Part shown: one piece after another, positions 878 to 27,355 of the stretch | How the letters are laid out: every line of letters begins with the position of its first letter | Position numbering within the stretch: the first letter of the stretch is position 1 | IMG/VR virus record: IMGVR_UViG_3300031853_000019 | Span: 1-64,000 of that record | Length of the DNA stretch: 64,000 nt | Strand: one strand, 5' to 3' | From: a virus | Lineage: Duplodnaviria > Caudoviricetes | Notes under the pieces: generated by a model | What the model was told of the DNA's origin: nothing | Seen by the model: only the letters and a program-made list of their open reading frames with translations | Database searches by the model: none | Position numbers and translations under genes: made by a program

Positions 878-900
878 AAGTGGTGCATAAAGCACCACTT
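878..900 (-). terminator. intrinsic terminator after phosphoesterase gene
   Basis: AAGTGGTGC/GCACCACTT inverted repeat, T-run on minus strand. Confidence 0.7.
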
Positions 901-1625
901 TATTCACTAAAATATTTAGCTTCAAATGTATCTAAATCAAGTAAAGCAATCTTCTTACTTTCAATAGTACCTAAATCTATATCAATCTTATGACCTTCCG
1001 CATATATTGCTACTTTAGGATCGTCGTCATTAATATAATACTTTAAATCATATGGATGATAATATCTTAAAGTTTGTGTAGGGGTATGACCATGAACTAT
1101 ATAATCATTATCCCGCGGTGATTCCTTGTCATGGGGCCAGGTCTCATTGATATGATCTCTATCCCAAAGGTAATCTACTCCCCACCTGCAATAAAATGAG
1201 TCAGGAGTAAAACCCGCATGGCTAAGATGTATTTCTTGACCTTTTGCATTTGTATAACTTTTGTACAAAGGAAGATTCTCTACTTCCTTTACCCACTTTA
1301 AAATCTGCTCTTCTGAATAAAGTTCAAAAGTATCAAGTGTTTTCCCGCCACCATTATAAAAAAGCCATAAATCTGCGGAATTAGCACTATAATCATCACT
1401 TAATAGCAAAGGAGTCGTGCGGGAAAAGAATTTTTCATGGTTTCCTTTAATGAAGATAATCCGCGGGTCATTGAAGATTAACTCTAGCATCCTCAAACCC
1501 CCATCCCCGCGATCCATAGCATCACCGAGAAAATATAAAGTATCATCTGCGGCAAGCGAATCTATTAACTTTTTAGCAATATCATAATGTCCGTGCCAAT
1601 CTGAACTAGCATATACTTTGCCCAT
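900..1625 (-). CDS. calcineurin-like metallophosphoesterase (phage Ser/Thr phosphatase-like)
   Basis: DxH (SDWHG), GDxxDRG (LGDAMDRG), GNHE, HAG and GHT motifs. Confidence 0.9.
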   Translation of the reverse strand: MGKVYASSDWHGHYDIAKKLIDSLAADDTLYFLGDAMDRGDGGLRMLELIFNDPRIIFIKGNHEKFFSRTTPLLLSDDYSANSADLWLFYNGGGKTLDTFELYSEEQILKWVKEVENLPLYKSYTNAKGQEIHLSHAGFTPDSFYCRWGVDYLWDRDHINETWPHDKESPRDNDYIVHGHTPTQTLRYYHPYDLKYYINDDDPKVAIYAEGHKIDIDLGTIESKKIALLDLDTFEAKYFSE

Positions 1626-1670: not shown

Positions 1671-3173
1671 CTAGTCCACCTTGATTACCTCGTATCTATC
1701 GGCAAGAAGCACCTTCAGCATCATGTCTGTTGCAGTCAAACCAGCCATTACTGCTTCCATCTGTGACATTGAGAAGCCAGAGATGTAATTGAAGGAATCT
1801 CCAATCGCAGGAATGTTGTTTGTTCTAGCGTCTAAGTTCCAGAAGGTAACCTTAGGAAGCTTATAGCCATGAGCATTGAACTTCTTCTCCATGCGCTCAA
1901 GCAGAGTACCTACTGTTGCAGAGGTAACACCATCAAAGCGTTCAGTTCTCCATATACCGCCGCCACCGCAAGCTGCATCAAACTCCATATCGGAAAAGAT
2001 GTAAAGTCTTGCGGGAAGGTCGGTCTGGGATGCCTTAGTCTTGAGAGCAGTGTCTAAGATCAAGTCAAAGACCTTCTCAAGGTTAGTGTTCATGCCCCAG
2101 TCTGCCTGAATACATCTTTTTACCTTATCAACAATGTTATCTCCTTCAAACTCTACGAGCTGAGGGTTCGCGCTAAAGGTAATGAAGTGTCCAGCGAAAG
2201 GACCATGTGACTTCTCGGCTACATATGCCCCCATACCGACTGCCGCCGCTACAGGAGTACCATACATAGAGCCAGATACATCAACTACCGCAATAGCATT
2301 TTCCTCACGACCGCAGTAGTAATCCTTCAGGTTATCCCAATACTTCTGCATTGTTGCTTCAAAAACATCATCAGATATATCGTACCTATTCTTATAAAGA
2401 ATCTTATCAACAATATTAACAGGGTTAAGCACTGCTGCATTAACCTTAGTTGTCTTGCTCTCCATAAATGCCTTATATCTTGCGGCAGTTACTTCCTTAA
2501 CCGCAAAAGCATTTCTGTACTTCATGCCCGCAACAGAAGGAATCTTATCGAACTGGATTTCATCCCATCTATTTTCAGACATAAGTCTTTCAAGCACATT
2601 AATCTTCTCTCTAAGACTAGAAAGAATCTTTCTATAAGTCTTAGGGGACATATTAAACTGCTTCATGAAGTATCTAGCCATCTCCTTAGTAGTTGTGCTA
2701 GATGCGTTCTCAGAAGGCATCCACTTACCAAGAAGAGAAGGAACTTCACAATGAGTATCCTCAAGAAGCTGTCTGTGTACAATATCTCCCATAGTAGATA
2801 CAAGAGGAGTATTGTAACAAATCTTAATCAAATCATCCCATCTACCGAACTCAGGAATGACATTTAAGAACTTTGCAGCGATCTCTACATCGTTCTTAAT
2901 TAACCAGCGGTAAGCAACTCTGAAGAAGCGTCTTTCGCCCTGACCGCCACGTACATCACGAAGATAGAACAAGCACTTCATAGCGAGGTTCTTATCCTGG
3001 CGGTAAGCATCTCCGAAAAGTGCTTCTACTTCCTTATCTGTTCTATTGCGGTAAGCGCCGCCTATAGAGAACATATCCAAGACATGATCCAGCGTAGAGT
3101 TATGCTTAACCGCACCATTTTCGGTATATCCAAAGTTAGTTTCGTTCTTTAATCCATTTAAAAATGCTGACAT
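1671..3173 (-). CDS. DUF2828 / TROVE-like protein with C-terminal vWA domain (Ro60-like)
   Basis: TENGA, RDVRGGQGER, GRWDDL, KWMPSE motifs; MIDAS DVSGSM and SDMEF. Confidence 0.85.
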   Translation of the reverse strand: MSAFLNGLKNETNFGYTENGAVKHNSTLDHVLDMFSIGGAYRNRTDKEVEALFGDAYRQDKNLAMKCLFYLRDVRGGQGERRFFRVAYRWLIKNDVEIAAKFLNVIPEFGRWDDLIKICYNTPLVSTMGDIVHRQLLEDTHCEVPSLLGKWMPSENASSTTTKEMARYFMKQFNMSPKTYRKILSSLREKINVLERLMSENRWDEIQFDKIPSVAGMKYRNAFAVKEVTAARYKAFMESKTTKVNAAVLNPVNIVDKILYKNRYDISDDVFEATMQKYWDNLKDYYCGREENAIAVVDVSGSMYGTPVAAAVGMGAYVAEKSHGPFAGHFITFSANPQLVEFEGDNIVDKVKRCIQADWGMNTNLEKVFDLILDTALKTKASQTDLPARLYIFSDMEFDAACGGGGIWRTERFDGVTSATVGTLLERMEKKFNAHGYKLPKVTFWNLDARTNNIPAIGDSFNYISGFSMSQMEAVMAGLTATDMMLKVLLADRYEVIKVD

Positions 3174-3309: not shown

Positions 3310-4135
3310 AGTACCATGTAGGAGTTGAACCTACTTGCGCGGAGTGCATTAAAAATGCTTATAATAATTCCCATTCCTCCTTTGAATAATTATTAATATC
3401 ACTTTTCTTTCTTGGAAGGGAATAACTATCACACCATTTTCTTATTGCATTATCAGTTACTCCAAATATTTTTCCTATTTCTGTAAAAGGCTTTTCTCTT
3501 ATTAATTGTTTTAATTTTTCTCGATCTGGTCTTTCTATTACTTTTCTTCTAGTTTTATTAATACAAGATAGACATAACCCTTCTCTACTAATTATATTTC
3601 CACATTCTTTGCAAAAATATTTTTTTGTTTTGCATTGAGAAGAAATATTATATAACTCATCATCTGTCATTCTATAATAACTATTTAATATATTTTCTGC
3701 AAGATATTGAGTATCAGTAAGTTTAATTGTCTTTTGATTTGATGTTTCATCTACTGGAATTAAATAAACCTTATCTTTCCATACAGTTGCAAAATAATCT
3801 ATTTCATCAGAAGTATATTTATGCTTTGAATGATTACTACTTTTCATATTATTTTGAGTGCAACATTGAAAAGTAAAAGATGATTCATTATTTTGAATAG
3901 ATTTTTTAGTTTGAATTTTTAAAATTTCATAACCAGTATCAACAATTAAATCATATCTTGATGCATTGTAGCTAGGTATTGAAATATCAAAACCATATCT
4001 TAAAAATTCTTCTTGGACTTTTAATTCTATAATTTGCCCCTTAAATAAATTTAATCTACTTGGTTCCATTTTACATTTAGGAATTAAATAAGTTTTTTAA
4101 TGCAGTCCGCTGCATAGCCGTTCTGCCAATGATAC
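3310..4135 (-). tRNA. tRNA-Cys(GCA) split by a 755-nt insertion in the anticodon loop (5' half 4135-4101, 3' half 3345-3310)
   Basis: Halves join to GTATCAT/ATGGTAC acceptor, GCGGA-CTGCA|AC-TCCGC anticodon arm, GTAGG-TTCAACT-CCTAC T arm, U73 discriminator. Confidence 0.85.
3359..4069 (-). CDS. PD-(D/E)XK homing endonuclease (I-Ssp6803I-like) with C-terminal Zn finger and HTH, inside tRNA-Cys
   Basis: KGQIIE...SRYDLIVD...KIQTK...YTSDEIDYFA; CxxC...CxxC; IGKIFGVTDNAIRKW. Confidence 0.8.
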   Translation of the reverse strand: MEPSRLNLFKGQIIELKVQEEFLRYGFDISIPSYNASRYDLIVDTGYEILKIQTKKSIQNNESSFTFQCCTQNNMKSSNHSKHKYTSDEIDYFATVWKDKVYLIPVDETSNQKTIKLTDTQYLAENILNSYYRMTDDELYNISSQCKTKKYFCKECGNIISREGLCLSCINKTRRKVIERPDREKLKQLIREKPFTEIGKIFGVTDNAIRKWCDSYSLPRKKSDINNYSKEEWELL

Positions 4136-4140
4136 AATTA

Positions 4141-4217
4141 TTACAAAGGACAATTATAATATGATAAGATAATCAAGATAAATTCATTGTTAATATAATT
4201 TGCTGTACGTCCTTTAA
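4141..4217 (-). ncRNA. CAGCAA-stem RNA copy 3 (candidate Y-like RNA)
   Basis: AAAGGAC-GTA-CAGCAAAT...GTCCTTT-GTAA. Confidence 0.55.
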
Positions 4218-4222
4218 AGAAT

Positions 4223-4295
4223 TTACAAGACACACCTTTTCGCTCTTTACAATCCCAAATTATACGCTAAAAAGAATTTGCTGCAAGTGTCTTAA
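4223..4295 (-). ncRNA. CAGCAA-stem RNA copy 2 (candidate Y-like RNA)
   Basis: AAGACAC-TTG-CAGCAAAT...GTGTCTT-GTAA. Confidence 0.55.
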
Positions 4296-4612
4296 CAAAA
4301 AATTAAAATAGTCTAGCCTGCAACTGGGGGACAACCACCGCCCTCCTACTCCAAAGTACTCGTCAGTCTCGGCGTGAATAAGGGTCTCTATTCACTAAGT
4401 TGTATCTAGCACTTTTGTGCCCGTCGGCACAGATCTAAAAAATTAATCCGCATACTCTATCGCTGGCGGTTCGCGTAGTGATATTTAGTACATTTCACTT
4501 CTCCTTTTTTCTGTTGAAATGGAAAGCCTTTACACTAATCACAGTCTAAACTAAAAGTCACATCCTCTTGACCATTTCTGTTCTCTAGAATCCCGTACTT
4601 TGGTCTGATGAG

Positions 4613-4685
4613 TAGCGGAGACGGGACTCGAACCCGTAACCCCCTGCCTATGAAACAGGTAACCTTCCAATTGGTCTACTCCGCG
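4613..4685 (-). tRNA. tRNA-Met(CAT), initiator-like (unpaired C1)
   Basis: Cloverleaf; CCTGT-TTCATAG-GCAGG; C1:U72 mismatch. Confidence 0.85.
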
Positions 4686-4692
4686 TTATTAG

Positions 4693-4766
4693 TTGGGGTA
4701 CAGGGACTTGAACCCTGGACCTCTAGAACCCAAATCTAGCGCTCTACCAAACTGAGCCACACCCCA
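4693..4766 (-). tRNA. tRNA-Pro(TGG)
   Basis: Cloverleaf; CTAGA-TTTGGGT-TCTAG. Confidence 0.9.
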
Positions 4767-4770
4767 ATAT

Positions 4771-4913
4771 TTACAAAGCGAAGAAAGAGGATTCTTGGAG
4801 CCAGGAGTAGTTTAAGCACACCTCTTTCAATTCAGACATAACTACTCATTTAACAGCGATCATTAATAATATTTTCAAATAACTTGCAATAAATTTGCTG
4901 AAATTCGCTTTAA
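4771..4913 (-). ncRNA. CAGCAA-stem RNA copy 1 with internal H-type pseudoknot
   Basis: AAGCGAA-TTT-CAGCAAAT...TTCGCTT-TGTAA; interleaved GAGTAGTT/AACTACTC and AAAGAGG/CCTCTTT. Confidence 0.55.
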
Positions 4914-5155
4914 TATATTAAAACTAAGAATCATTCCACGGCTTCCCACTTTATAGCCGAAATTTTTGTGCACCATCAGGGTACTGTTGTATCACAAATC
5001 TCTTCGGAGCGACCGTTACGACTTAGGTGACCTCGTGCGTGAGGCAATTCTTCAGTTTTAATTTCTTCGTTTAATATATATTGAGCATATATGAACTCTA
5101 AGATGTCTTTAATTTCTTCTGTTTTTGTCATATTTACTGCTCACTTTCTATATAT

Positions 5156-5184
5156 ATTATATAATAAATTTTTATAAATTTCAA
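5156..5184 (-). promoter_or_regulatory. sigma70/SigA-type promoter, AT-rich phage class; also at 7209-7237, 7928-7956, 8855-8883, 11549-11577 and upstream of many genes to 22.5 kb
   Basis: TTGA(A/T)(A/T)-17 nt-TATAAT with recurring TTTATAAAAATTT spacer and TATATA after the -10. Confidence 0.8.
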
Positions 5185-5194
5185 ATATTTTTAT

Positions 5195-5321
5195 TTACTA
5201 GACACGGTATAATATCTCTGAGGCTTTACCAATTAAGCTATAGAGTGAGTTGACTCTAGTGGGACTCGAACCCACAAAAATCAGACTTAGCACGATATGA
5301 ATTATTGCTGGCTGTGTCTAA
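5195..5321 (-). ncRNA. YrlA-like Y RNA: circularly permuted tRNA mimic closed by a CAGCAA stem
   Basis: TAGACAC/GTGTCTA end stem; TCTGA/TCAGA; T arm GTGGG-TTCGAGT-CCCAC placed BEFORE loop-closed acceptor TAGAGT-CAACTC-ACTCTA and D arm GCTT-AATTGGTA-AAGC. Confidence 0.75.
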
Positions 5322-5322
5322 G

Positions 5323-5394
5323 CTCCCCGAGTAGGACTCGAACCTACAACAGCTCGGTTAACAGCCGAGTGCTCTACCATTGAGCTACCGGGGA
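5323..5394 (-). tRNA. tRNA-Asn(GTT)
   Basis: Cloverleaf; CTCGG-CTGTTAA-CCGAG. Confidence 0.95.
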
Positions 5395-5444
5395 TCAAGA
5401 GCGGTTAGACTATATCTCAAACCTAACCGCTTTTGTTAGTTTAA

Positions 5445-6266
5445 TTAACCTAACAATGAAAGGACGCCTTGAGTAGACTGATTTGCCTGTGCAAGCATAG
5501 ACTGAGCAGCTTGCTGAAGAATATTATTCTTAGTGTAATTAGTCATCTCAGCAGCCATATCTGTATCACGAATCTGGCTTTCTGCAGATGTTAAATTTTC
5601 ACTATAATTCTTCAAATTATTAATTGTATATTCAAGTCTATTCTGTTTTGCGCCAAGAGAAGATCTTGCAGCGGAAACAGTCTTAATAGCATTAGTTACT
5701 CTGCTCATTGTAGCGGCTGCCGCACTGTGGCTATCAACCGCGATTGCAGATGCACCCGCAAGAGAAAGTCCTGATGTATCCATCTTTGCAATATCAATCT
5801 GCATATTTTCACCTGCATTAGCACCTACTTGAAGTTGCTTGCCAGTGAAAGAACCATCAAGAAGTTTAGTTCCATTGAACTGAGCCTTATTAGCAATAGA
5901 ATCAATCTCTGCCTGAAGTTCAGTCATTTCGTCTTTGATAGCATCTCTATCTTCATCTGCATTAATATCGTTAGCTGCCTTGTTAGACAATTCACCCATG
6001 CGCTGAAGAATAGAATGAATCTCATTAAGATTACCTTCTGCTGTCTGAATGGCGGAAATGCCATCCTCAGAGTTCTTAACTGCTTGATTGATACCACGGA
6101 TCTGATTTCTCATTTTCTCACTGATGGAGAGACCAGCTGCATCGTCTGCTGCACGGTTTACTCCAAAGCCAGAAGAAAGTTTCTCTGTGCTCTTTGCTAC
6201 TGCTTTCACATTCTGTGATAACATTCTGTTTGTATTTGCTGCTTGTAAATTGTGTTGTACTACCAT
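5445..6266 (-). CDS. fliC: flagellin (D0/D1 only, 273 aa), Lachnospiraceae-type
   Basis: MVVQHNLQAANTNRML...EKLSSG...AADDAAGLSISEKMRNQIRG...; C-terminus RSSLGAKQNRLE...SQIRDTDMA...AQANQSTQGVLSLLG; GGAGG RBS before ATG at 6266. Confidence 0.97.
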   Translation of the reverse strand: MVVQHNLQAANTNRMLSQNVKAVAKSTEKLSSGFGVNRAADDAAGLSISEKMRNQIRGINQAVKNSEDGISAIQTAEGNLNEIHSILQRMGELSNKAANDINADEDRDAIKDEMTELQAEIDSIANKAQFNGTKLLDGSFTGKQLQVGANAGENMQIDIAKMDTSGLSLAGASAIAVDSHSAAAATMSRVTNAIKTVSAARSSLGAKQNRLEYTINNLKNYSENLTSAESQIRDTDMAAEMTNYTKNNILQQAAQSMLAQANQSTQGVLSLLG

Positions 6267-6288
6267 AGTAATTACCTCCTTGTAAATA

Positions 6289-6308
6289 ATACTACTTCCT
6301 TGTAGTAT
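6289..6308 (-). promoter_or_regulatory. CsrA-type site: GGA in a hexaloop hairpin in the flagellin leader
   Basis: ATACTAC-AAGGAA-GTAGTAT; second ACAAGGAGG overlaps the RBS. Confidence 0.55.
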
Positions 6309-6345
6309 GTACTTTTTCATTGTTACTAGCGCGAACGCGCTTTAT

Positions 6346-6417
6346 CACCTCTACGGGACTTGAACCCAGTATCTGGAGATTGAGAGTCTCCTATCCTAGC
6401 CACTTAGACGAAGAGGC
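6346..6417 (-). tRNA. tRNA-Glu(CTC)
   Basis: Cloverleaf; GGAGA-CTCTCAA-TCTCC. Confidence 0.9.
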
Positions 6418-6422
6418 GTTAT

Positions 6423-6493
6423 CACTCCAGCGGGACTTGAACCCAGCATCTAAGCCTTGAAAGAGCTTTATCCTAGCCTTTAGAAGATGGAGC
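6423..6493 (-). tRNA. tRNA-Glu(TTC)
   Basis: Cloverleaf; AAGCT-CTTTCAA-GGCTT. Confidence 0.9.
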
Positions 6494-6645
6494 GTAGAGG
6501 GGAGCTATCCCATCAAATATATTTATTAATAAGATAGCTCTATTATAAATTACTTGTATTTAAGTTAAACCCTGTTTAGCATCTTTAGTTTCGCTATAAG
6601 TCTTGTGAGGTAAACGGGTTAGAAAAACATCTCAGACTGACACAA

Positions 6646-25185: not shown

Positions 25186-25560
25186 CTACTCGTCCTCACC
25201 CTCGGTCTCCGCATCTGCGGAAACCTCACCATAGAGCATCTTGCCCTTTACCTTAGCCTTAGCAACACCCATCTGCTTGAGGAGTGCGCTTGCTCTCTGG
25301 CAAGATACATCTACCGCATTACCAATCTCGGTAGCAGTTGCGGAACCCTGTGCATCAAGGAACTCCGCAATACGAACCTTGATTTCGTCATTCTCAATCT
25401 GACGCTTAGAGGGTTTATCGCTCTTAGCATACTTCTTATCAAGCTGGGCAATCATTCTCTCTGCTACCGCAATCTCGTCTGCGGTAAAAACATCTGCCAT
25501 ACCTACTACCTTAGCAAGTACATCTCTCTTAGTTACACCAGTAATTCTAGCCATAGTCAT
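25186..25560 (-). CDS. winged-helix DNA-binding protein, paralog family member 3
   Basis: VTKRD...AERMIAQLDKK...ATATEIG..VDVSCQRASALLKQM. Confidence 0.65.
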   Translation of the reverse strand: MTMARITGVTKRDVLAKVVGMADVFTADEIAVAERMIAQLDKKYAKSDKPSKRQIENDEIKVRIAEFLDAQGSATATEIGNAVDVSCQRASALLKQMGVAKAKVKGKMLYGEVSADAETEGEDE

Positions 25561-26192: not shown

Positions 26193-26570
26193 CTAGGCTT
26201 TAGGCGGTCTGTGTTTGGTGAGTTTCATGGTGTACTCGCTACCCTTGTAAGTGAAGGCGACCTCGGTTTCGGTCTTAATTGCCTTGACCTCTGCGCCCTT
26301 ATTTTCAAGAAGTTCGGCAACCGCCTTGAGTAAGTAGCCTTTGATTTCATCCACCTTGCGCTCCCTTGTACTAGGTTTGCGCTTGCGGTCTGACTTCTCG
26401 TATCGTCTTTCGGACTTAATGGAGTTGACCGCCTTTTCAGTTTCCTCACTAGGCTTGATTTTACCGCTTTCCTCAAGAATCAAGTCGCAAGCCTCTGTGA
26501 TACTACACTCTAAACTTTCAACATACTTGTCAATGAGGGCATCATCAACATCAAAACCCTTATACTGCAT
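26193..26570 (-). CDS. hypothetical phage protein
   Basis: ORF track; GAGGTG RBS before MQYKG. Confidence 0.7.
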   Translation of the reverse strand: MQYKGFDVDDALIDKYVESLECSITEACDLILEESGKIKPSEETEKAVNSIKSERRYEKSDRKRKPSTRERKVDEIKGYLLKAVAELLENKGAEVKAIKTETEVAFTYKGSEYTMKLTKHRPPKA

Positions 26571-26662
26571 TTGCAACACCTCTTTCTTTATTTGATACAC
26601 TAATTATAGCATACCTTTAGGGGATTGTCAATAGGTATTTTTGATTTTTTGCACTCTACCCT

Positions 26663-27355
26663 TTAAGAGTAGAGTGCTTTCCGCATTTTCTTATGCTTTG
26701 CCATACAATATGCAAAAATTGCGGTTTCAATAATTACATCCTCAAGTCCTGTATGACTTTCAATAAAATCGGGGTTTTGTGTAATATAGCGGTAAACAGT
26801 TTCCGCTTTTACTTGCGGTCTAGGTGTCTTATGGGCGGTTACAAAACCATTCTCAAAACAAAACCGCTTGTATGTGGGAGTTTTTGCAACTACATCTTGT
26901 ACCATTTTCATAGAATCCCAAACAATAGTGCCATAAGGTAAAAACCATCTGTATTTGCTTTTGGTTTCCCATCTTTGTGTTACATTGAGTGCGGTATCGT
27001 CAAACCTTGCATTATAGGCGATAACAATATTTGTATTGTACTTTTTCATTACATCCGCTAATGTCTTGCGGATTTCATAAAGGCTTGCGACTTTTCTCTT
27101 TCCGTTTTTAATATCCTTATAATACTGCGGTAACTTATCCGCATAATATGAAGATTTCATAAGGGATTTCTCACCGAAGAAAATTCCTCTATTTACAAAG
27201 GAATATTCCTCATATATAGTGCCATGCTTATCACAAACCGCAAATCCGCAATCATATACAAACATATTATTTGCGGAAACACCCTCAAAGTCCTTGTCTA
27301 TGGGACACGTTTCGGTGTCTAACACTACATAATACTTTCTTCTCTTGTCAACCAT
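26663..27355 (-). CDS. DEDDh (DnaQ-like) 3'-5' exonuclease
   Basis: VLDTET; AYNARFD; DSM; HTGLED. Confidence 0.85.
   Translation of the reverse strand: MVDKRRKYYVVLDTETCPIDKDFEGVSANNMFVYDCGFAVCDKHGTIYEEYSFVNRGIFFGEKSLMKSSYYADKLPQYYKDIKNGKRKVASLYEIRKTLADVMKKYNTNIVIAYNARFDDTALNVTQRWETKSKYRWFLPYGTIVWDSMKMVQDVVAKTPTYKRFCFENGFVTAHKTPRPQVKAETVYRYITQNPDFIESHTGLEDVIIETAIFAYCMAKHKKMRKALYS

Follow-up and report, generated by a model that had tools for sequence, protein, structure and literature searches.

The window analysed here is the whole stretch of 64,000 nucleotides at positions 1 to 64,000 of the IMG/VR virus record IMGVR_UViG_3300031853_000019 (Duplodnaviria; Caudoviricetes), a record of 82.7 kb from a gut phage, estimated to be 61% complete. 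Its minus strand carries an array of 19-20 tRNAs, and within this array lies a small element, designated E1, which resembles the bacterial Y RNAs of the YrlA type. On the same strand, 2 kb downstream, is a gene for a protein of the DUF2828 family, the presumed partner of E1, and between the two lie three further elements, E2, E3 and E4, that share with E1 a terminal structure referred to here as the handle (Table 1). The particle of Ro60 and its Y RNAs is a classic of RNA surveillance and, in humans, a major autoantigen; Ro60 recognises a conserved stem of the Y RNAs. In vivo, YrlA is a ligand of Ro60/Rsr; it bears tRNA modifications and serves as a substrate of RNase P. To our knowledge, Ro60 systems of bacteria and phages are known only for TROVE proteins with GNCGAA-type RNAs.

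Table 1. Features of E1 and its surroundings in the window (vWA, von Willebrand factor A; MIDAS, metal ion-dependent adhesion site; ORF, open reading frame)
Feature	Position	Strand	Remark
E1, CAGCAA-handle RNA with tRNA-like, YrlA-order module, ~125 nt	5195..5321	minus	presumed ends, from conserved stem and flanks
E1 terminal (handle) helix UAGACAC/GUGUCUA, 7 bp	5320-5314 / 5205-5199	minus	sequence reading
E1 spacer AGC	5313-5311	minus	sequence reading
E1 single-stranded CAGCAA	5310-5305	minus	sequence reading; presumed protein-recognition element
E1 connecting ('anticodon') stem UCUGA/UCAGA, 5 bp	5285-5281 / 5221-5217	minus	
E1 U5 linker	5280-5276	minus	
E1 T arm GUGGG-UUCGAGU-CCCAC	5275-5259	minus	
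E1 acceptor-like stem with 6-nt loop, UAGAGU-CAACUC-ACUCUA	5258-5241	minus	
E1 UA junction	5240-5239	minus	
E1 D arm GCUU-AAUUGGUA-AAGC	5238-5223	minus	DNA GCTT-AATTGGTA-AAGC
E1 conserved G directly 3' of the terminal helix	5198	minus	sequence reading
E1 tRNA-like module (connecting stem, U5, T arm, closed acceptor, D arm)	5217..5285	minus	
tRNA-Asn(GUU)	5322..5394	minus	ends 1-2 nt before E1
Twentieth tRNA	6422-6494	minus	Rfam 39.6 bits; not reported by ARAGORN
Flagellin gene, complete	5445-6320	minus	
Promoter-like site TTGAAA-17-TATAAT, 11/12	5156..5184	minus	begins 11 nt after E1
ORF of 51 amino acids	4976-5131	minus	no Pfam or PHROG match
E2, handle RNA AAGCGAA-UUU-CAGCAA ... UUCGCUU-UG, 143 nt	4771..4913	minus	different cargo
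E3, short handle RNA AAGACAC-UUG-CAGCAA ... GUGUCUU-G	4223..4295	minus	
E4, short handle RNA AAAGGAC-GUA-CAGCAA ... GUCCUUU-G	4141..4217	minus	
PD-(D/E)XK endonuclease ORF	3359-4069	minus	
DUF2828 + DUF7788 (vWA, MIDAS DxSxS) protein, 500 amino acids	1671..3173	minus	presumed partner; Pfam and model
Lambda-phosphatase-like metallophosphoesterase gene	900..1625	minus	directly downstream of the DUF2828 gene

E1 and its homologs

The layout proposed for E1 in the initial annotation was recovered base by base on the minus strand, including the YrlA order of T arm, closed acceptor and D arm and the presence of CAGCAA at the place where the bacterial Y RNAs described by Chen et al. 2014 (PMC4201824) carry GNCGAA. 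The tRNA-like module has no anticodon loop; its 5-bp stem leads to an asymmetric internal loop and the handle, and E1 was not called as a tRNA by ARAGORN. Judged from its sequence, E1 is a copy of the top half of a tRNA, the elbow and the acceptor, without the anticodon.

The Rfam model of YrlA, a search suggested in the annotation, matched E1 at 5188-5305(-) with 38.9 bits (E 4e-7 locally, 1.5e-8 genome-wide) and with the T, acceptor and D arms in register, above the tandem tRNAs of the same genome, which reached at most 22.4 bits. The score lies below the gathering threshold of the model (69 bits), and at gathering thresholds the Rfam matches in the window were all tRNAs. When E values up to 10 were allowed, E1 matched YrlA alone and the short handle RNAs at 4100-4960 matched nothing. 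We rejected the 69-bit threshold as a decisive test of membership, because the canonical YrlA of mycobacteriophage Bxz1 reaches 32.5 bits and also fails it, so that the threshold does not discriminate.

The ortholog of E1, at L159:1382-1502, comes from a relative with a 74% identical DUF2828 protein. It keeps CAGCAA and the handle UAGACAC ... GUGUCUA-G, with the spacer AAU instead of AGC, and has different letters in the arms (T stem UCAAG/CUUGA, acceptor CGUACC-AGUU-GGUAUG, D stem GCUC/GAGC), where the changes between the two RNAs are compensatory in 4/5 pairs of the T stem, in 6/6 of the acceptor and in one pair of the D stem. A covariance model, R1, trained on 38 elements that a strict structural parse had yielded, gave E1 79.3 bits and true tRNA dimers at most 45 bits. 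Members outside its training set were found in Bacillus phage PBC2 (two), BPS17W1 (L152:10806-10936), L014/L015, L021 and L159; the member of mycobacteriophage LeBron (L150:6525-6652) that was re-found by R1 is a training sequence, first parsed from the LeBron locus of the protein-seeded set described below.

Among 54 aligned homologs, 98.3% of the pair cells were standard pairs compared with 62.9% after shuffling (reached by 0/500 shuffles) and 37-44% for slid structures. These percentages are upper bounds, inflated by the choice of most rows through pairing criteria and by their alignment to the model. Two-sided changes occurred in 412 cells versus 117 in shuffled alignments, and compensatory change was present in 19/20 pairs, with covariation in the T, acceptor and D stems and in all 7 pairs of the terminal stem. 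The equivalents of U8, A14 and G18, positions used in no search step, were invariant in 54/54 homologs. The initial annotation had made its proposal depend on covariation in homologs; with this support present, comparative sequence evidence indicates that E1 is a conserved RNA gene and not a chance resemblance.

In nine of the 54 E1-type RNAs (e.g., L095:9803-9936, L124:3980-4114, L105:826-958) the acceptor loop starts with CCA right after a stem of 7-8 bp, while the acceptor loop of E1 is without CCA. Such a buried CCA has the look of an encoded tRNA 3' end and hints at descent from a tRNA gene or at nicking by RNase P, which has been shown for the YrlA of M. smegmatis. The relatives L162, L163, L165, L166 and L168, with 64-68% protein identity, had no high-scoring E1-type RNA within 6-7 kb on either side of the gene, thus the E1-type cargo is not universal even in near kin. 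L163 and L164 have a short handle RNA, and the best match in L168 scored 47.9 bits and was without CAGCAA.

Linkage of the handle family to DUF2828 genes

The handle family is defined by a 7-bp helix (AAGRCAC/GUGYCUU), a spacer of 2-4 nt, CAGCAA, a variable cargo, a 3' G and location on the strand of the DUF2828 gene, and the signature that was tested required a perfectly paired 7-bp stem with its 3' strand no more than 200 nt away, and a 3-nt spacer and CAGCAA after its 5' strand. The protein alone served to collect 26 phage loci, from IMG/VR relatives and from seven cultured phages, and in these loci 74 handles were located on the gene strand versus 14 on the opposite one, with 10.9 in shuffles (maximum 19) and a median of 11.5 for the other 59 permutations of the bases of CAGCAA. 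From the logo of these copies, WA-AGRCAC-nUA-CAGCAA ... GUGYCUU-G, with the 3' G in 63/74, it follows that not only the pairing but also the sequence of the terminal helix is conserved. E1 belongs to the family by its handle UAGACAC-AGC-CAGCAA ... GUGUCUA-G, its position on the gene strand, its R1 score and its three siblings; its spacer is atypical, as 59/74 copies have A at spacer position 3.

In unrelated cultured phages the handle RNAs abut the gene, on its upstream or its downstream side. Three lie directly downstream of gp53 in mycobacteriophage LeBron, three downstream in Staphylococcus phage SEP9 and four downstream in the Felix O1-like Salmonella phage BPS17W1; Campylobacter phage F365 has two and Bacillus phage PBC2 eight upstream, and Listeria phages LP-064 and CKA15 have three directly upstream, behind a TTGACA-17-TATCAT promoter. 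The same linkage is seen in 80 DUF2828 loci of bacterial and archaeal species genomes: 242 handles were on the gene strand versus 42 on the opposite strand (24.6 in shuffles), handles were present in 70/80 loci, for the most part as arrays immediately upstream of the DUF2828 gene, and ten E1-type members were present, all on the gene strand. Three of the contigs with DUF2828 and gene-strand handle RNAs (L192, L198, L237) are from metagenome-assembled genomes (MAGs) of Promethearchaeota and Woesearchaeota, archaeal by binning.

The reverse test started from the RNA. IMG/VR was scanned for a T loop preceded by CAGCAA, without regard to the encoded proteins, and records with the full E1-type architecture were kept. 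DUF2828 was found in 22/31 of these viral records, including 9/10 of those at least 90% complete, and TROVE in 0/31; in controls having the loose pattern and not the full element, DUF2828 was found in 4/29 (Fisher p 8e-6) and in 0/5 of the complete ones. The annotation had recommended a covariance model and a scan of DUF2828 genomes; handle RNAs and E1-type RNAs recur beside the gene in phages and bacteria. The proposal that E1 is the ligand of the 1671-3173 protein is supported by this strong reciprocal co-occurrence of handle and gene in unrelated phages and bacteria.

Some DUF2828 loci had no clear handle RNA by the strict signature, i.e., those of Vibrio phage phi-ST2 (L156), L022 and L029. 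Near the start of the gene, phi-ST2 has GACAUUU-UA-CAGCAA with a 2-nt spacer; L022 has no gene-strand handle within flanks of ~6 kb, and the L029 locus is cut at the gene start. The handle may exist in these lineages in a variant form or at a more distant location.

The cargo of handle RNAs includes a second permutation of the tRNA, with a closed acceptor hairpin, D arm, complete anticodon arm and T arm, and with the handle at the junction of T and acceptor stems (L014:4372-4491, L015:3960-4079, L016:2826-2942, L021:8505-8623). Their anticodon-like loops, CUGAAAA (GAA), AUGUAAA (GUA) and CGUGAAA, differ between close relatives. A handle RNA of PBC2 (L153:6305-6427) contains a nearly whole tRNA body, annotated in the record as tRNA-Ile, and its cargo matches the Rfam tRNA model at positions 6-65 with 55.5 bits (6351-6413).

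Transcript data are available for the P100-like Listeria phage CKA15, in which three non-coding regions located at most 2 kb upstream of CKA15_055 have the highest read depth in the genome; the product of CKA15_055 was detected in virions, its best HHpred match is Rsr, and the authors suggested that the abundant non-coding RNAs may be Y RNAs (PMC12282133). We found that CKA15_055 is a DUF2828 homolog and that the three handle RNAs of this phage lie at ~25,290-25,555 of OR088597.1, between the TTGACA-17-TATCAT promoter and CKA15_055. The CKA15 study differs from ours in that it defines no motif, structure or family, and no E1-type tRNA-like member was scored by R1 in the CKA15 locus. The most abundant phage transcript, a non-coding RNA of ~490 nt from 26,236-26,727 (L157:1091-1582) behind a TTGACA-type promoter, seems to be a separate abundant RNA beside the handle RNAs and the DUF2828 gene. 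The abundance data are consistent with the handle-RNA hypothesis and do not amount to a demonstration of handle-RNA expression.

The DUF2828 protein and the proposed particle

The initial annotation pointed to a Ro60-like DUF2828 protein 2 kb downstream of E1, and both parts of this description hold. The 1671-3173 product matches DUF2828 (95 bits) and DUF7788 (154 bits) in Pfam, with no match to TROVE (PF05731), and also PHROG 850, 'RNA-binding protein'. Since sequence searches of the PDB found no Ro60, a fold search was needed. An AlphaFold2 model from a 33-sequence alignment (predicted local distance difference test 83.7, predicted template modelling score 0.80) had Ro60 structures as all of its top 13 Foldseek matches, among them those of Xenopus, human, Deinococcus Rsr and Thermus phage phiLo. 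VIA-align superposed model residues 11-480 on 1yvp_A with Z 20.8 (404 residues, root mean square deviation 4.0), with Z 14.5 for the phiLo Ro60, 13.6 for Rsr and about 10 for chains matched only in the vWA domain. The predicted model has the ring of HEAT-like repeats and the vWA domain with MIDAS that characterise Ro60, and the MIDAS residues D298, S300 and S302 are invariant in the alignment. These matches and the MIDAS conservation make it very probable that the protein has the Ro60 ring-plus-vWA fold. Annotators of its relatives already use the name 'Ro-like RNA binding protein'. The family is abundant, with more than 7,900 metagenomic relatives, 710 cultured phage records and matches in at least 558 stretches of bacterial and archaeal species genomes; the protein atlas gave only viral DUF2828 clusters and nothing on eukaryotes.

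We consider it likely that E1 is an excised small RNA whose handle is bound by the DUF2828 ring and whose cargo makes it an adaptor. E1 would be a stable, non-decoding RNA cut from the minus-strand transcript of the tRNA operon. As E1 starts 1-2 nt after tRNA-Asn and there are no terminators in 4000-6500, the two probably share a transcript from which E1 is freed by processing, and the 3' processing of tRNA-Asn would generate the 5' end of E1. The 3' end would also have to come from processing, because no terminator separates E1 from the downstream promoter-like site, the sole strong one on the minus strand. The handle, i.e., the 7-bp helix, the 3-nt spacer, CAGCAA and the 3' G, would be recognised by the DUF2828/vWA ring protein, and the cargo, a tRNA elbow and acceptor arm with tertiary-contact bases intact and no anticodon, would set the contacts of the particle. 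E1 would thus act as YrlA does with Rsr, tethering the ring protein to enzymes that read the elbow and acceptor; candidate targets are RNase P, the CCA-adding enzyme, T-loop and D-loop modification enzymes, exonucleases, and decay or repair enzymes. The particle would serve the quality control or repair of tRNA or other structured RNA during infection.

The gene neighbourhood is suggestive of a role in healing RNA ends or in RNA repair. The metallophosphoesterase gene next to the DUF2828 gene recurs in L158, L163 and L164, a phosphoesterase is near the gene in LeBron (gp46), PBC2 and the Listeria phages, and the enzyme might heal RNA ends or act as an effector of the particle. In the Listeria phages, RtcB, RNA ligase and phosphoesterases are encoded within a few kilobases of the DUF2828 gene. 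The promoter-like site downstream of E1 faces the short ORF, which is followed by E2 and two tRNAs; the flagellin gene and the endonuclease ORF also belong to the tRNA and handle-RNA region. A megablast search of 4500-6500 against cultured phages returned tRNA-Asn as the sole match.

Several points weigh against this reading, besides the selection of the covariation rows mentioned above. In the RNAfold check that the annotation had called for, the minimum free energy structure of E1 alone (-31.9 kcal/mol; z -2.4 versus shuffles) is not the tRNA-like fold, which lies 3.5-7 kcal/mol above it (-24.9 kcal/mol, or -28.4 with extra pairs), while the minimum free energy structure of the ortholog L159 is the proposed architecture. 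The folding of E1 alone is unimpressive, and the case for E1 therefore rests on comparison. No Ro60 chain of the PDB was found by phmmer or by the 33-sequence profile, and the link between DUF2828 and Ro60 comes from a predicted structure, not from sequence profiles. In this window alone the linkage of E1 to the gene is loose, because 2 kb with tRNAs, the other handle RNAs and the endonuclease ORF intervene. The RNA-repair context is thin here, as RtcB was not found in the 82.7-kb record, the sequenced ~61% of the genome. In CKA15, no handle lies in 26,236-26,727, the sole region whose coordinates were published.

Other explanations of E1 were weighed against the adaptor. It might act as a free tRNA decoy or sponge for a host tRNA-targeting defence nuclease or tRNA-binding enzyme, independently of DUF2828. 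The tRNA tertiary-contact nucleotides are perfectly kept and the anticodon is missing, the phage invests heavily in tRNAs, and RNA-repair genes accompany the locus in Listeria phages, all of which would suit a decoy. We find this unlikely, since a decoy leaves unexplained why tRNA-like and non-tRNA cargos share the same handle and why the handle tracks DUF2828, and E1 is without the anticodon loop that anticodon nucleases mostly need.

It is quite unlikely that the handle elements are cis-acting processing or regulatory signals, such as RNase sites, operon punctuation or a leader or trailer of the DUF2828 mRNA, rather than free RNAs. The position of E1 inside a tRNA operon, with neither promoter nor terminator of its own, would agree with such signals, and the bacterial arrays, which immediately precede the gene on its own strand, look like a long leader. 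However, arrays are also found on the downstream side of the gene (LeBron, SEP9, BPS17W1) or several kilobases from it, handles are present in phages with one or no nearby tRNA (SEP9, F365), and every copy is self-contained, having a covarying terminal stem of its own and a variable cargo, which fits excised stable RNAs better than cleavage sites.

In E1 the T arm and the acceptor 3' strand, which make up the 3' half of a tRNA, come before the acceptor 5' strand and the D arm of the 5' half. Together with the CCA after the acceptor 3' strand in 9/54 homologs, this could suggest a circularly permuted tRNA gene of the type found in the red alga Cyanidioschyzon, from which the two processed halves would be ligated to give a tRNA that can be charged. 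We rejected this as very improbable and close to refuted by anatomy: in place of a complete anticodon arm with its loop, the stem of E1 opens into the conserved handle, which is common to RNAs without tRNA features, the acceptor loop holds no CCA, and ARAGORN is silent. A chance resemblance or decayed junction of tandem tRNAs, suggested by the weak matches of tandem tRNAs to the YrlA model and by the modest fold z of E1, has hardly any probability left and was rejected as refuted by covariation, given that the acceptor strands at a junction come from different tRNAs and need not pair, whereas here they pair perfectly and covary in the 54 homologs, and that E1 far outscores true dimers with R1.

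Comparison with known Ro60 and Y RNA systems

Ro60 and Y RNA systems, the tRNA mimicry of YrlA and phage-encoded examples are already known, and annotators are aware that DUF2828 proteins are Ro-like. No Rfam family and none of the papers searched contained the CAGCAA handle, its association with DUF2828 or its tRNA-like members. In the literature, DUF2828 appeared only in incidental mentions in plant and tardigrade papers, and CAGCAA in connection with Y RNA or phages gave nothing relevant except the CKA15 study (PMC12282133). The window provides a clean member of YrlA order with a compensatory ortholog. DUF2828, a large family of unknown function, gains a concrete candidate RNA partner and a defined recognition element.

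Whether DUF2828 and CAGCAA-handle RNAs form a second ancient particle of the Ro60/Y-RNA type, parallel to TROVE with GNCGAA and present in hundreds of cultured phages, many bacteria, some archaeal MAGs and perhaps eukaryotes, seems to us evenly balanced. If so, its phage carriers would be the Felix O1-like and P100/A511-like phages, mycobacteriophages of cluster L, and phages of Campylobacter, Staphylococcus and Bacillus. A single ring protein would recognise the handle throughout, and exchangeable cargos would direct it to different targets, E1 being the cargo that mimics the elbow and acceptor. The tRNA-like members of the two classes show that mimicry of tRNA by Y-like RNAs has arisen, or has been retained, in both branches. 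The handle RNAs may explain the abundant non-coding RNAs of CKA15. Binding, structural and knockout work is immediately possible, because phages that are easy to work with carry the system (Felix O1-like, P100/A511-like, LeBron and SEP9).

A similar handle is known from a eukaryote. The Class I RNAs of dictyostelids follow the pattern GTTGRC-CTTA-CAGCAA ... GTCAAC-TG (PMC5054030), and the conserved positions agree in PMC7919456. Like the phage handles (AAGRCAC-nTA-CAGCAA ... GTGYCTT-G) they have a short terminal stem and an adjacent unpaired motif, and like the short handle RNAs of phages they are ~60 nt long with a variable interior. They differ in being eukaryotic and Pol-transcribed from their own promoter element, in the reported binding to Rnp1A, a protein with an RNA recognition motif, and in that no tRNA-like cargo has been described (PMC7919456). 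The resemblance may be convergent; if the particle proposed above is real, it could perhaps explain the Dictyostelium Class I RNAs, which have the same stem-TTA-CAGCAA handle.

The Ro60 of phage phiLo with its RNAs Yrl1 and Yrl2 (PMC12135203; PDB 9KOP, 9L5Y) is a further parallel, in which a phage protein of Ro60 fold has adjoining genes for partner RNAs, and the phiLo structure is the second-best match to the DUF2828 model. In the phiLo system, however, the protein is a recognisable Ro60 homolog and the study used the CGAA motif for its RNAs, while here the protein belongs to another Pfam family and the motif is CAGCAA.

The closest known counterpart of E1 is YrlA (RF02553; PMC4201824). Both end in a stem, protein-binding in YrlA and presumably so in E1, that has an unpaired motif next to its 5' strand; both also show the permuted order of T arm, loop-closed acceptor and D arm without an anticodon loop, and a location on the same strand within a few kilobases of a gene for a ring-plus-vWA protein; YrlA and YrlB, like the handle RNAs, are siblings with a common protein-binding part. 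Chen et al. 2014, who searched TROVE-annotated genomes alone, defined the motif GNCGAAN0-1G (PMC4201824), whereas E1 carries CAGCAA in a sequence-conserved AGRC.../...GYCU helix, and its partner is a DUF2828/DUF7788 protein, not TROVE. Of the location expected for YrlA, the same strand within ~4 kb of a TROVE ortholog, strand and distance (2 kb) fit and the TROVE gene is missing. The cargo of handle RNAs is also more varied, with a second tRNA permutation and whole tRNA bodies. The name YrlA-like given in the initial annotation is therefore correct, and E1 falls short of being a YrlA proper on account of its motif and partner.

The difference between the two classes is seen in the canonical TROVE phage Bxz1, where two RNAs with the 5' strands GGCCGAGAG and GGCCGAAGG lie directly upstream of the TROVE gene (130313-131344). 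The first of them (GGCCGAGAG) has the T arm, closed acceptor and D arm. The motifs are of the GNCGA type (GCCGAA, GCCGAG), and CAGCAA occurs in neither RNA. The Rfam YrlA model gave four DUF2828-linked RNAs 38-43 bits, and R1 gave the Bxz1 YrlA 35.4 bits with the handle deleted from the alignment. As the models cross-detect the tRNA-like module alone, the two classes share this module and the overall plan, not the protein-binding element. With the CAGCAA handle recurring beside DUF2828 genes and GNCGA-type motifs in Bxz1 instead, E1 is best read as the YrlA-like member of a parallel Ro60-like/Y-like system.

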